From Eledone cirrhosa (lineage: Eukaryota), in assembly GCA_964016885.1 (NCBI GenBank), contig OZ024740.1:119350001-119414000 (forward strand): a stretch of DNA of 64,000 nucleotides. The letters are read 5' to 3'. The notes below the pieces were generated by a model. That model saw only the letters and a list, made by a program, of their open reading frames with translations. It was not told the origin of the DNA and searched no databases. Numbering within the stretch: the stretch's first letter is position 1; every line of letters starts with the position of its first letter. Both the position numbers and the translations under genes were made by a program. Below, one piece after another: positions 1,347 to 63,761 of the stretch.

Positions 1347-1554
1347 AACGAAGGAAATGTGGTAAGGAACCAGGTGGACCATAACACACCAAAGTACTCA
1401 ATACTTAGGGTAGTAGAGTGGGTAATAGGAACGAGTAGGACCCCGACGGCTGAGCTCAAGCCGTTTCGACGGCTAATTCTGGACTAAAATTTTAGTCCAG
1501 AATTAGCCGTCGAAACGGCTTGAGCTCAGCCGTCGGGGTCCTACTCGTTCCTAT
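1347..1554 (-). mobile_element. Short PLE pLTR insertion in (TA)n: perfect 130 bp palindrome (1425-1554) plus ~78 nt tail; retains only the 3' half of a hammerhead (GAAA-stem III-GUC)
   Basis: Exact palindrome centred on taaaa|tttta; GAAAcggcttgagctcagccgTC at 1512-1534; same family at 3589-3717 and 36108-36220. Confidence 0.8.
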
Positions 1555-3717
1555 ATATATATATATATATATATATATATATATATATATATATATATAT
1601 ATATGATCATAAACAGAATTTCCCCAACTTTCTGTCCACCATTTCTCAACATGCTTCTCTCTCTCTCTCTCTCTCTGTATCTCTCTCTCTCTCTCTCACT
1701 CTCTCTCTCTCTCTCTCTCTCTCTCTCTCTCTCTCTCTCTCTCTCTCTCTCTCTCTCTCTCTCTCTCTCTCTCTCTCTCTCTCTCTCTTGCTATTGTCCA
1801 CCTCTGTCTTCCTTCTGTTTGGGTATGTTTACATGTCTAGATTCAGCCTTTCAATATAATTCATGCATTAACTGGGTATTTTTCATCTCAGCTATTATGA
1901 AGATGAATATATCAAAGATTACCATGTTCAAATAACACTGCACTACATTTAAAAATACATGCATACATCCGTACACAAATACATATGCATATATTTATAT
2001 ATACTTATATAATATACACATGCAAACACACACAATCATAAATATATATAAATATATATATATATATATATATATATATACATTTATATATATATATTAA
2101 AATACGCACATACAAATAAACACATTAACACAAATGAACATACACAAATGAACATACATTGAAATATACATGTTTTCTTTTCCTTGTAAGCCTATATTGA
2201 ATCCTTGTTATCTAAGCATAGCTAGATGATATACAATGATCATATAAATGAACTGCATGCGCCTAACCGCCCTATCACTAACATTTGAGAAACAGCTTTG
2301 ATGTTTGAATTGTATGGAGAAATAAAAGGCTAAAATACATATTGAAAACATTCATGTGTATAGAGATATTACATATACATATATACATATATATGTATAT
2401 GCCTATATATATAATATAATATTATATATATATATATATATATATATATATATATATATATATATATATATATATATATATATATTTATATAATTATATA
2501 TACATATATATATATATATATATATATATATATATATATATATATACAATGATATTAAATAAATGTAAACTATATTTATAAAACCATATTTATTTTATTA
2601 TATATATTTCAAGGGCAAGAAACATATATACTAAAATAAATATGGTTTCATAAATATAGTTTCCATTTATTTAATATCATTGAATATTTACTCCAGTAAC
2701 TGTTGAGTGCTCTAAATCAGTTATAAACATTTATGTTTGTCGGACTTCCAACAAATTAAATACAACTTCTACTTATATATATATATATATATATATATAT
2801 ATATATATATATATATATATATATATATATATATATATAGGTATATACATGTAAATATGTATATCTAATATCTCTATATGAGATAACTGTTATATATATA
2901 TATATATATATATAACAGTTATCTCTCATTCCTACATACCGAAGAAATGAGCAATCCACTGGGTTGACTCTGTAGAATCAAATTAAGGCCTAGGATGCTG
3001 TAGGTGGCTCATGCCTGCCTTAATTGCAATGCAACTAACACACACACCAAAACGCACATATATATGTAATATATATCATATATGTATATATATATTTTTT
3101 GCATATATTCATGTAAAAGTAAAATTTTCGAGAACATTTTTAGGTTAAATTTATTGGGTCAACTATTATATAGATACAATGTTTGAGGGGCTAGAATGCA
3201 AGGTATGGCAACCTAAGTCCTGATTGAGTCGTAAGGGCACTCACATGATATATGACATTTCTTGGGCATTTTTAAAACCTGGCAGAACCGATCCTTCCCC
3301 AGATCTGAACAGAGCCAATTTATTCCAAAGAAGTAACAATGCATGAATTATATTGAAAGGCTGCATCTAGACATGTAGACATACCCAAACAGAAGGAGGA
3401 CAGAGGTGGACAATAGCAAGAGAGAGAGAGAGAGAGAGAGAGAGAGAGAGAGAGAGGGAGAGAGAGAAGCATGTTGAGAAATGGTGGACAGAAAGTTGGG
3501 GAAATTCTGTTTATGATCATATATATATACACACACACACACACACACACATATATATATATATATATATATATATATATATATATATATAGGAACGAGT
3601 AGCTCAAGCCGTTTCGACGGGTAATTCTGGACTAAAATTTTAGTCCAGAATTAGCCGTCGAAACGGCTTGAGCTCAGCCGTCGGGGTCCTACTCGTTCCT
3701 ATTACCCACTCTACTAC
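1410..3717. repeat. Local inverted duplication: 1410-1869 is repeated in reverse at 3338-3717
   Basis: Palindrome, (TA)n, gatcataaacagaatttcccc, (CT)n and ttcatgcatt all recur as the reverse complement. Confidence 0.9.
2547..2774 (+). mobile_element. Short PLE fold-back (2547-2682) plus ~90 nt tail, flanked by (TA)n; same family as 23556 and 63306
   Basis: caatgatattaaataaatgtaaactatatttataaaaccatatt is mirrored; the tail is homologous to 63675-63761. Confidence 0.8.
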
Positions 3718-3779
3718 TAGAGAGAGAATGGTAGAGACGAAGTAAGCAACAGATATATAGGAAGAATCATCTTTAGAAC

Positions 3780-3900
3780 TAGACTGGTACATTTTTGTCA
3801 ACTTTGAAAGGTTGAAAGGCAAAGTTGACCTGAATAGTATTTGAACTCAGACCACAGAAAGCCAGAACTAAATACTAGAAAGCATTCTATCCAACGTACT
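3780..3900 (-). mobile_element. SINE fragment (Nin/Deu-domain-like); related copies near 14530-14700, 20140-20330, 40290-40500, 42565-42680, 43290-43400, 44250-44370 and 45195-45300
   Basis: Recurrent ctggtac...aaaggcaaagttgacc...tttgaactcag motif or its reverse complement. Confidence 0.7.
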
Positions 3901-5574
3901 ACGTGCTGTAACTTTGAAGGAATAATGACTGAAACTGTAATGACCCATTCAACTCATGCCAGCATAGAATGCTGATATGAATGAGGATGATTATGATGCG
4001 AATTTTATAAATCAATTACAAACAAGAAACTTGCTTCATAAGATTCTTTATATGAATTATATTTTTTTAATGTCTCCTTCATACTCTTGTATTCATACAA
4101 ACATTCCTTGGGTATCTTTAGTGTTTAATAATTATTTGTCTTTAAAAACTAATGAAGGAGAGATTTTACATAACATTTTTTTATTATTAAAATATGTTTA
4201 AAATAATAATTTTTAAGTGTCATATAATAGCTTCAGTTTTATTAGTTAATTTTTTTTTTAGTTTTACTCACATATATTCATTCACACAGACACGTGTGTG
4301 TGTGTATGTCTGAGTGTGTGTGTATGTCTGTGTGTGTGTGTACTTTTAAATTCATAAATGCTTCCCTGGCTTCACAAAAAATATTTTAAAGACTGGACTA
4401 CTTTTATATTCAGTGTTCGAAAGTTCTAAATATTTAAAATTTTGTGCTAAAATAATATTAAAAATTCAACACAGATATTTAAACATTTCCCTCTTAGTTT
4501 TTTTTATCTCTTTATCATTTTTTTAGCTTTTTTGCACAGTTTTCTCTTTGTATGTGTGTATGTGAATGTATGTGTGTATAAGTATGTTTGTGTATGTGTA
4601 GGTGTGTGAGTGTTTTGATGTCTGTGTGTGTGTGTATGCAACAGTATATTTTTGTCACTGATTTTCGATTATGAATAAAAGAATATTTTAATAGATATAA
4701 ATGAATGTTGATTTGCAAGTTATATTTAGATATTATAGATAACTAATCTTTAGTAAACTTCTAATTTCAGCATATAAAAAATTGTTCAAGTTATAAATCG
4801 AAAGTAGACTTCAATGTGATAAATTGTTGAACAATGGTTCAATTAAAGTGAGGAGTCAATCTTACAATATTTATGTTTATATAAAAAATAAGCACATTTT
4901 AGAATATGTACAATAATTTACATTGCAATTATATATACTATCACAATCATCCTCATCATTCAACAGCTTTTTTTACTGCTAGCAAGAGTTGAATGGGTTC
5001 ATTGTATTGCGGTACCACCACCACGGACACTGTCATGTCTTTGACACAACTGAAGATGTTGATTAACACATTGTATAGCAAGTTTTCTATGGCTGGATGC
5101 CTTTCCTATTACCAATATTTTTGCAGCATGTACTGGGCGATACTGTGTTGAATGTGAACATTTACTAAGGAACTGACTGATGTGTTAGGATTTACAATGA
5201 CATGGGGTTGATTATGGTGATGATGCAAACAGCTACTAAGTAGTTATGGCTGGTGTGTTAGGATTTAGAGGTGTTGCATGGAGGGTGATGCTGGGCATAA
5301 CAGTGATGAATCTAGTAGGGAATGGTGGTGGAGCATATATCATATATGTATATATAGATAGATAGATAAAAGGGGAAAGAGCTACCCATAAGAATCAAAC
5401 TTGCATTTGGTATATGCCAGATGAGTGCTTAACCAGATGATGATGATGATTTACTTCACATTTATAATTTCTTGATGATGAATATTTTGACAATAAATAT
5501 ATAGGAATGTTAAAATTTCGTGTGAGTTTTTAAAAGGCTAAAACAGGTTTTTTAGACAGTAATTATATATATAT

Positions 5575-62750: not shown

Positions 62751-63089
62751 AAAGATATACGACATGTTTAATAAATAAACATTTTGAAAACACATTTATG
62801 AATATTGAAAAGCTGGCAGCTATATTGAGTTCCAGCAGAGAGCAGTGTAATGTAGCACTCTCTTTATAACGACCAGAATCAGAAACGATGTTTGTAGTCG
62901 ATAGTTACCCCTCATTTGCTTCTGCTGGAATCCGCTACATGGCGCTACGTCATCAGTTTCCAAATTCATAGCTGAAGGCTCTCAAATCGTTTATTCATAA
63001 ACATACGGTATAGCGCTAGATATACAAAATACTAATACTTATATGTATTATACAGCAATGTTCGAGCGAACACCTTAATTATATATATA

Positions 63090-63256
63090 TATAATATAAG
63101 ATCAAAAGATGGTTAAATGAGTTCCATGTATTTTATTATGCGCATTTCAAAAACAAATATCATCATGCAATAATATTTGTGTTTTCATCAGATAAAATAG
63201 GAGAACATGATATGAAGGTTAAAAATACTTGTGGATAGTGCAGTTTTAAATCAACA
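63090..63256 (-). mobile_element. Solo 3' pLTR of the 20.5 kb Naiad family in (TA)n
   Basis: Homologous to 20508-20690. Confidence 0.88.
63129..63199 (-). ncRNA. Type I hammerhead ribozyme, intact core, long stem II, palindromic stem III
   Basis: tattttat CTGATGA aaacacaaatattatt..atgatatttgttttt GAAA tgcgca TA ataaaata. Confidence 0.88.
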
Positions 63257-63305
63257 CCTCCTACATATATATATATATATATATATATATATATATATAT
63301 ATATA

Positions 63306-63761
63306 TACGATATTAAATAAATGGAAACTATATTTATAAAACCATATTTATTTCATTATATATATTTCAGGGATATCATATTAACAATATGCTATGCCTT
63401 CCTCAGACAAAATATAATATAGACAGTTTTATAGATAAATAGATTTGACATACCGTTCAACATCGACTTGTATTTGAAAAGTTGATTTGGCAGATCAACT
63501 TTTCAAATACAAGTCGATGTTGAACGGTATGTCAAATCTATTTATCTATAAAACTGTCTATATTGTATTTTGTCTGAGGAAGGCATAGCATATTGTTAAT
63601 ATGATATCCCTGAAATATATATAATGAAATAAATATGGTTTTATAAATATAGTTTCCATTTATTTAATATCGTAAATATACTCCAAATACTTGTCGAGTG
63701 CTTTTATATCAGTTATAAATATTTACTAGTTGTAACCCAACAATTTAAATATAACTTTCCA
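63306..63761 (+). mobile_element. PLE fold-back: near-perfect 369 bp palindrome (63306-63674) plus ~87 nt tail in (TA)n; intact hammerhead in each arm (63566-63631 + and its mirror)
   Basis: Centre gttgat-ttggcag-atcaac; tattttgt CTGAGGA agg..cct GAAA tatata TA atgaaata. Confidence 0.9.

Follow-up and report, generated by a model that had tools for sequence, protein, structure and literature searches.

What sets the two ends of the one-sided tail that a Penelope-like element (PLE) leaves at its insertion site? Such tails, and a reverse transcription that starts internally, are the hallmark peculiarities of PLEs, which form the sister group of telomerase, and the determinant of the two start sites is a long-standing question. 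It is raised here by 64,000 nucleotides (nt) from Eledone cirrhosa (GCA_964016885.1, contig OZ024740.1, positions 119,350,001 to 119,414,000), hereafter the window, in which several PLE insertions carry the same short inverted repeat, ACTC...GAGT, in their tails. Five such sites, assigned to families A, B and C in a preliminary description, were all found again, with loops of 16, 16, 11, 12 and 11 nt, each starting, in the sense orientation of the element, 5-8 nt beyond where the inverted arm ends. The GCTC...GAGC version suspected in a further element (family D, 59.1 and 62.5 kb) also proved real (Table 1). We consider it likely that, in PLEs of the Hydra clade, two tandem bulged hairpins between the hammerhead core and the start codon act as RNA binding sites which position the reverse transcriptase (RT) at two internal start sites, each 6-10 nt upstream of a hairpin.

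The bare repeat is not in itself a signal. From the 157 ACTC and 176 GAGT words of the window, about 5.6 pairs are expected by arithmetic and seven were found, two of which (at 11085 and 26175) fall outside PLE tails. Since this count is not above the word-count expectation, it was rejected as a signal, and only the position of the motif can be meaningful. Tailed insertions were collected with a pattern that made no use of the motif, (TA)n-arm-arm'-tail-(TA)n, in 1.26 Mb of DNA (the window and 120 evenly spaced 10-kb stretches) and in 0.60 Mb of flanks of search loci. The harvest yielded 146 elements in 40 tail clusters, among them some artefacts or non-Hydra families. The strict motif, RCTC...TN-GAGY, began 0-16 nt past the arm end in 14 of the 40 clusters, against 0.11 expected from shuffles, and a looser descriptor did so in 16, against 2.6. 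In other 17-nt windows across arm and tail, the strict motif was present in 0-2 clusters. Thus, the position of the motif, not its count, is significant, and the enrichment proposed as a check was obtained. As the descriptor was derived from most of the same, related clusters, chance placement is rejected but homology is not. The search-locus flanks served as held-out data for the fixed descriptor: among the eight clusters seen only there, it was present in two, a looser form was recognized by eye in two more, and three or four resembled artefacts.

On the sense strand, the complete motif opens with RCTC, followed by an inner stem (1-6 pairs) that encloses a loop of between 3 and about 90 nt; after the stem partner come a 2-nt bulge starting with T (TN), GAGY and finally RCTY. 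The inner stem, the bulge, the 3' RCTY and the existence of a second copy had been overlooked in the preliminary description. Below, the copy inside the tail is called hairpin 1 and the copy beyond it hairpin 2. The outer stem shows exchanges that preserve pairing (ACTC/GAGT, GCTC/GAGC, TCTC/GAGA, GTTC/GAAC, GCAC/GTGC). In the genome-wide sample, hairpin 1 is mostly ACTC/GAGT and hairpin 2 mostly GCTC/GAGC; metagenome elements have GCTC/GAGC for both. Folding energies of individual hairpins range from -2.9 to -7.3 kcal/mol. The bulged form is the predicted minimum-energy structure in five of seven short window hairpins and the outer stem alone in the other two; RNAalifold also recovered the outer stem alone. 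In three copies (L195 of family LL, L301 of family AC and L120 of family I), the loop reaches 63-96 nt (in one case with an AT microsatellite, in another with a long stem of its own); neither the foot of the hairpin nor the end position has changed. Family LL, at first an apparent exception, was ruled out as such when both its hairpins were found, with loops of 65 and 89 nt. Among Rfam covariance models run on 17 loci at E up to 1 or 5, no listed match fell on any hairpin.

In family D, the second hairpin lies at 62488-62503, 6 nt past the point where tail-bearing copies end. It was also found in read-through copies of families A, B, F, I, LL, N96, AA and AC and, in reduced form, of family C. 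Copy ends, defined as the points where copies meet (TA)n, were mapped on read-through references, and each of eight families showed two end peaks, each 6-10 nt ahead of a hairpin. The unconditioned peaks and the hairpin starts were, respectively, 129/209 and 137/215 in A, 131-134/225-226 and 141/234 in B, 133-136/205 and 143/214 in C, 124-128/218 and 134/224 in D, 136/225 and 143/233 in F, 126/204 and 134/210 in I, 108/245 and 115/252 in LL, and 128/244 and 136/252 in AA. After de-duplication, 317 of 339 ends from nine families lay 0-10 nt before a hairpin (modes 6 and 8 nt), in windows that make up about 6% of the reference. Furthermore, tail length equals hairpin spacing over a range of 71-137 nt: for A, B, C, D, F, I, LL and AA, the spacings are 78, 93, 71, 90, 90, 76, 137 and 116 nt and the tails 80, 91, 72, 90, 89, 78, 137 and 116 nt. 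Ends of LL at reference position 290 or above were excluded, since any TA run can be aligned to its AT-rich loop; other AT-rich stretches, among them the loop of family D, gather almost no ends. In most families, the read-through sequence at each peak starts with TA, AT or TAT-like bases in common with the target.

Family AA (L086:6471-7900; also L061 and L072) is a tandem unit of about 525 nt with no long open reading frame (ORF), which retains both hairpins and both end peaks. It is likely a non-autonomous partner of Hydra elements.

Families A, B and C had been regarded as unrelated. They are not: all are PLEs of the Hydra clade, a clade with a C-terminal endonuclease (Craig et al. 2021, PMC8557442), and share 45% (A-B), 53% (A-C) and 42% (B-C) amino acid identity. 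Every motif-positive family to which an ORF could be assigned (A, B, C, D, F, G, I, LL and N96) has the same RT-endonuclease type; among these, F, I and LL include near-identical copies whose frames are open over a long stretch. Across eight families, pairwise identity is 38-61%, and these eight cluster together against 39 metagenome relatives with a support of 99/98, in a midpoint-rooted tree of our own and metagenome rows without an outgroup. RWK/RWR/RWT was present at the N-terminus in all six rows that cover the region, and SDKT, in which DKG is changed to DKT, in seven of eight rows (SDKA in the other). By eye, families A, D and I, and F with part of the linker, show a single RT and C-terminal GIY-YIG endonuclease with a CxCX5C linker, CxxC and a terminal CxH, and no CCHH; a Pfam scan of the PLE ORFs gave no match. 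FD(V/I)xMGxxD...GxYRDD agrees with the Hydra rows in the part of the published material consulted, a comparison made by eye in place of a joint alignment or tree. Hammerhead cores (CTGANGA...GAAA) are present in the references of B, C, F and I, and the pattern had no match in those of A, D, LL, N96, AA and AC. The copies end in (TA)n.

Outside the Hydra clade, the loose descriptor was found in the tails of none of 13 copies of family P (another clade with a C-terminal endonuclease), none of three of Q and one of three of U, the last two having Neptune-like ORFs; the tails of several families with no ORF in hand were also without the motif. In twelve P-family loci, no read-through copy was found, and a supposed hairpin after a P tail (L095) was rejected as a chimera with a family AC tail. 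At that locus (L095:4240-4440), the P tail joins the AC tail directly at the AC arm boundary, with no TA run between them.

Since all ORF-linked, motif-positive families are Hydra-clade, the motif is a conserved homologous element and not the product of convergence. The surrounding DNA was indeed found not to align, as had been claimed: comparison of the 5' regions of ten families by blastn gave a single cross-family match, of 15 nt, in the hammerhead core. Simple homology, proposed as a refutation, is therefore right as regards the relatedness of the families but not as neutral homology, since the flanking DNA has diverged beyond alignment.

Relatives from metagenomes provided an out-of-sample test, as the descriptor was fixed before these loci were fetched. 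The set comprised 77 Hydra-like loci; 18 with less than 100 nt of upstream DNA were excluded, and the other 59 formed 39 clusters. Within 150 nt before the ATG, the fixed descriptor occurred at least once in 35 of the 39 clusters and twice in 25 (shuffles 12.9 and 1.1), and the strict form in 32 and 22 (shuffles 1.2 and 0.02); in the controls, the strict form was met once and twice in 1 and 0 clusters for the ORF interior and in 10 and 1 for the opposite strand. Hairpin 1 begins 41-62 nt past the GAAAC core in 18 of the 20 clusters having both. When sequence anchors alone were used, 61 hairpins were recovered in 36 clusters, with a spacing of 55-72 nt in 25. T was the first bulge base in 58 of the 61, and in the register with a 2-nt bulge the first inner pair was Watson-Crick in 57 (41 C-G, 16 T-A), against 1-6 in other registers. 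Two-sided changes filled 28 cells against 8.8 in shuffles, a value that none of 500 shuffles reached, which is not a probability as the rows are related. Of 20 scorable loci, 16 have the 3' end of the copy between -1 and 5 nt before one of the two hairpins; the scored set leaves out repeats running to the contig end or reading through and one spurious second match.

A covariance model built from the metagenome hairpins alone recovered, in the window, four of the five sites of the preliminary description and three more at E < 0.03, all on the element sense strand; the top seven matches were all PLE hairpins. Up to an E of 10, this model gave no match to the family C hairpin. Of its 47 top matches in 1 Mb of evenly spaced stretches, 41 have a TA run no more than 110 nt downstream (background 10%), and five of the other six resemble read-through copies. 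Among published Hydra consensus sequences inspected by eye (PMC8557442 File S7, seen in part), the motif is clear in Hydra-2_Amil, Hydra-2_Ajap and Hydra-1_Ajap (twice), with a variant in Hydra-1_Crog. No relative was found in viral contigs, and no RNA record with the family F 5' region was listed.

The arms of the insertions bear on how the two start sites are used. In three clean Hydra insertions without an internal TA run (L037, L073, L088), the tail-less arm is the longer, ORF-bearing one; L117 was dropped from this group because TA runs lie between its arms. In five other Hydra insertions, the middle ORF piece is continuous with the tail-bearing arm. Either arm of an insertion can thus be the long one. 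Together with the tail-less family F copy of the window, the three long tail-less arms argue that both sites are primed from RNA and that a pure fold-back is insufficient. Moreover, hairpin 2 lies beyond the end of tail-bearing inserted copies, so that it could act only on the template RNA (or at the donor locus).

We infer that the motif folds in the sense RNA and binds the element protein, which would dock on each RNA hairpin, probably with one subunit of a dimer apiece. The endonucleases would nick both strands of a (TA)n tract, and each nicked 3' end would anneal to UA or UAU just 5' of a hairpin and be extended. Priming at hairpin 2 would yield a complementary DNA (cDNA) that includes the tail and hairpin 1, priming at hairpin 1 one that lacks both, and head-to-head joining of the two cDNAs would give arm-arm'-tail.

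Several observations weigh against this mechanism. Individual hairpins are not more stable than shuffles (z -0.3 to -1.7), the mean folding energy is equal on both strands, and helix-internal G-U outnumbers A-C by only 9 to 2 (p 0.065), which indicates the strand weakly. The covariation proposed as a check was found as compensatory inner-stem pairs in the metagenome hairpins but not in the three inner pairs of the outer stem, which are invariant in a 48-row alignment whose rows are related and were selected for outer-stem letters. The family C hairpin 2 has only a 4-bp stem and a 5-nt loop. Ends located elsewhere amount to 22 of 339 in the mapped families and 4 of 20 in the metagenome loci; the correlation of spacing with tail length is partly built in, the modes having been taken inside windows, and peak heights in family A are biased by the picking of its loci with a tail query. 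Twin priming alone does not account for the near-symmetric palindromes, 81 of 125 harvested insertions. In the published consensus sequences consulted, the motif is weak by eye in Hydra-1_Amil and was not seen in Hydra-1_Obim (PMC8557442). Finally, in the PLE tested in vitro, the Poseidon-clade Anolis element PAc (Frangieh et al. 2024, PMC11167929), reverse transcription starts inside a loop and not 5' of a stem.

The best rival to RT positioning is RNA cleavage or transcription termination directed by the hairpins a few bases upstream, the 3' ends of the two resulting RNA species being primed by ordinary target-primed reverse transcription. It accounts for the same two end peaks and the spacing rule, and in the anole element RNA-seq read ends fall on the start sites (PMC11167929). 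We nevertheless judge it unlikely: the anole protein, although of another clade, starts internally in vitro on unprocessed RNA, and its main product is unaffected by 3' extensions (PMC11167929), while a cut at hairpin 1 or 2 would separate the ORF from its 5' region. The preliminary description had offered three roles for a cis signal: GIY-YIG nicking, second-strand termination or RT binding. A conserved signal tied to the tail boundary was confirmed and RT or protein binding is the best of the three; the absence of hairpin 2 from inserted copies argues against the other two and for a signal in the template RNA. In the nicking version, the motif would be recognized or cut by the endonuclease as double-stranded DNA, for instance as the near-palindrome GAGYRCTY. 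The GAGY-RCTY run is strongly conserved in sequence, and endonuclease recognition of plasmids is cited in PMC11167929 as having required the tail of D. virilis Penelope. This is improbable, as the (TA)n target tracts do not contain the motif, inserted copies lack hairpin 2, and a folded single strand is what the inner-stem covariation, the constant bulge and the range of loop lengths (3-90 nt) indicate.

Still less probable is a role of the twin hairpins mainly in RNA capture or in translational self-repression from the 5' untranslated region (UTR), the start sites following loosely from the position of the protein. Regulation by tandem protein-binding hairpins in the 5' UTR is common, and in metagenome elements hairpin 2 sits 37-75 nt before the ATG. 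But copy ends keep a narrowly defined distance to the hairpins (modes 6 and 8 nt) and follow their spacing over 71-137 nt, and the non-coding family AA retains both hairpins and both end peaks. Least probable of all, in our estimate, is that the first cDNA folds back and is copied as far as hairpin 1, giving the inverted arm. The frequency of near-symmetric palindromes fits such second-strand termination, and self-priming has been proposed for such junctions (PMC3846280, seen in part). As a general rule it is already contradicted by the three clean insertions with a longer, ORF-bearing tail-less arm and by the 3-kb family F copy, which stops at the upstream site without a tail; furthermore, the hairpins are too weak to block a polymerase, and hairpin 2 would be left unexplained.

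Table 1. PLE insertions and hairpins of the window (positions counted from its first letter; model E, E-value with the metagenome covariance model)
Feature	Position	Strand	Remarks
Family A short insertion	1348..1551	-	fold-back arms 1428-1551, 80-nt tail 1348-1427, between (TA)n runs
Family A hairpin 1	1392..1419	-	ACTC-TACT-loop-AGTA-TT-GAGT, then ACTT; starts 8 nt into tail; model E 0.008
Family B insertion	2547..2773	+	arms 2547-2682, 91-nt tail, hairpin 1 at 2690-2708, model E 0.017
Family I copy, decayed hairpin 1	9870..9894	-	
Family F 5'-truncated Hydra-clade element	20509..23466	-	RT-endonuclease frame 21616-23466; ends at upstream site in (TA)n, no tail, no hairpin
Family A mini-insertion	36111..36219	+	hairpin 1 at 36148-36171, model E 0.0045
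Family AC hairpin 1 in tail	52491..52517	+	best model match of the window, E 2e-5; missed in the preliminary description
Family C insertion	58842..59032	-	arms 58913-59032, tail about 70 nt, hairpin 1 at 58889-58907
Family D near-full-length Hydra-clade element	59081..62750	-	frameshifted ORF about 60531-62474; tail region at both ends
Family D hairpin 1, 3' tail	59118..59163	-	GCTC...TC-GAGC, long loop; model E 0.003
Family D hairpin 2 including trailing ACTC	62484..62503	-	GCTC-C...G-TT-GAGC, then ACTC; model E 0.0004; missed in the preliminary description
Family D hairpin 1, 5' read-through copy	62548..62593	-	
Family B insertion	63308..63760	+	arms 63308-63672, 88-nt tail, hairpin 1 at 63680-63699, model E 0.021

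The window contains further elements. Positions 3338-3717 are an inverted duplicate of 1410-1869 (part of a family A insertion and about 300 nt of host flank) that breaks inside the hairpin 1 loop. A weak model match (14127-14180, plus strand, E 0.27) just after a decayed palindrome (13995-14097) may be an old tail from a further Hydra family. The motif is absent from a Neptune-like ORF and from several fold-back insertions of family P (8316-9893 on the minus strand, 15932-17405 and 29669-30341); at least three PLE clades share the (TA)n tracts. The ACTC...GAGT at 26175 looks like a chance occurrence inside the 1051-residue frame of a non-LTR (long terminal repeat) retrotransposon (24613-27768, minus strand; endonuclease, RT and zf-RVT by Pfam). 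In the wider sample, families O and O2 (L028, L098, L071, L080) are abundant tailed elements flanked by (TA)n, with many read-through copies, in which neither an ORF nor the Hydra motif was found.

Hairpins that recruit an RT are known in general, and a stem-loop has already been described at a PLE start site. In R2 and L2/SINE elements (3' stem-loops) and in hepadnaviruses (epsilon), a short structured RNA bound by the element's own RT sets the start of copying. Those signals are single and either terminal or protein-primed, whereas the Hydra hairpin is duplicated, internal and located 3' of the first copied base. What is new is that it is duplicated and matches both start sites like a ruler. 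Within partial coverage of the literature, which included Arkhipova 2013, Cervera 2014, Weinberg 2017 and a 2026 retrozyme preprint, we found no published description of the motif.

The elements studied here agree with the Hydra clade of PMC8557442, as far as that source was consulted, in RWK/R, DKT, GxYRDD, the CxCX5C linker, CxxC, the C-terminal CxH and the hammerhead cores, as well as in (TA)n targets, an inverted 5' copy and a one-sided tail. They differ in tail length (65-140 nt here, 30-40 nt there); in addition, no hairpin is described in the consulted parts of that work, the word being absent from the main text, and the tail is ascribed to endonuclease resolution. The minimal hammerhead ribozymes of PLE pseudo-LTRs (Cervera and De la Pena 2014, PMC4209133) are likewise small conserved RNA structures of the same region but separate elements, and hairpin 1 has no catalytic core. 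For annotation, the hairpin allows curators to recognize the boundaries of Hydra elements, and their non-autonomous partners, in sequence data alone. A 25-nt motif, conserved among Hydra-clade elements of different hosts, duplicated and at a constant distance from both sites, also reduces the question of what determines the start sites to simple mutagenesis and offers a possible means of choosing the point at which a retroelement RT starts to copy.

A close precedent is PAc. In this element, the tail is delimited by two internal positions at which the RT begins; nicking and extension take place on each target strand, and the protein is predicted to form a dimer (PMC11167929). The two end peaks of eight families are a genomic footprint that fits the same arrangement, and the hairpin just 3' of each site is a candidate determinant. 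Both systems have the tail between two start sites, an AT-rich target, a stem-loop at the start and a hammerhead shortly upstream. In PAc, the start lies within an AC-rich loop inside the ORF of an element of another clade and sequence, and the parts of PMC11167929 consulted report no conserved or duplicated motif; in the Hydra elements, each start precedes by 6-10 nt a conserved bulged hairpin of the 5' UTR, whose loop is freely variable and not AC-rich. In the PAc template printed in the methods of PMC11167929, a hand count places two hairpins that resemble each other, both with AC-rich loops, at about ORF +107-123 and +145-168, a spacing of 38 nt. The start reported for PAc (+111-118) is the loop of the first, and position +172, where the minimal RNA stops, lies just beyond the second. 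Poseidon elements may also use a tandem hairpin pair. We tentatively propose, as a possibility somewhat short of even chances, that the duplicated hairpin is an RNA ruler which loads the two RTs of a dimer at a fixed spacing on one RNA, each primed by one nicked strand, so that tail and head-to-head arms result, and that clade-specific pairs do likewise across PLEs, PAc included. If this is true, moved or grafted hairpins would program the start of copying on any RNA.

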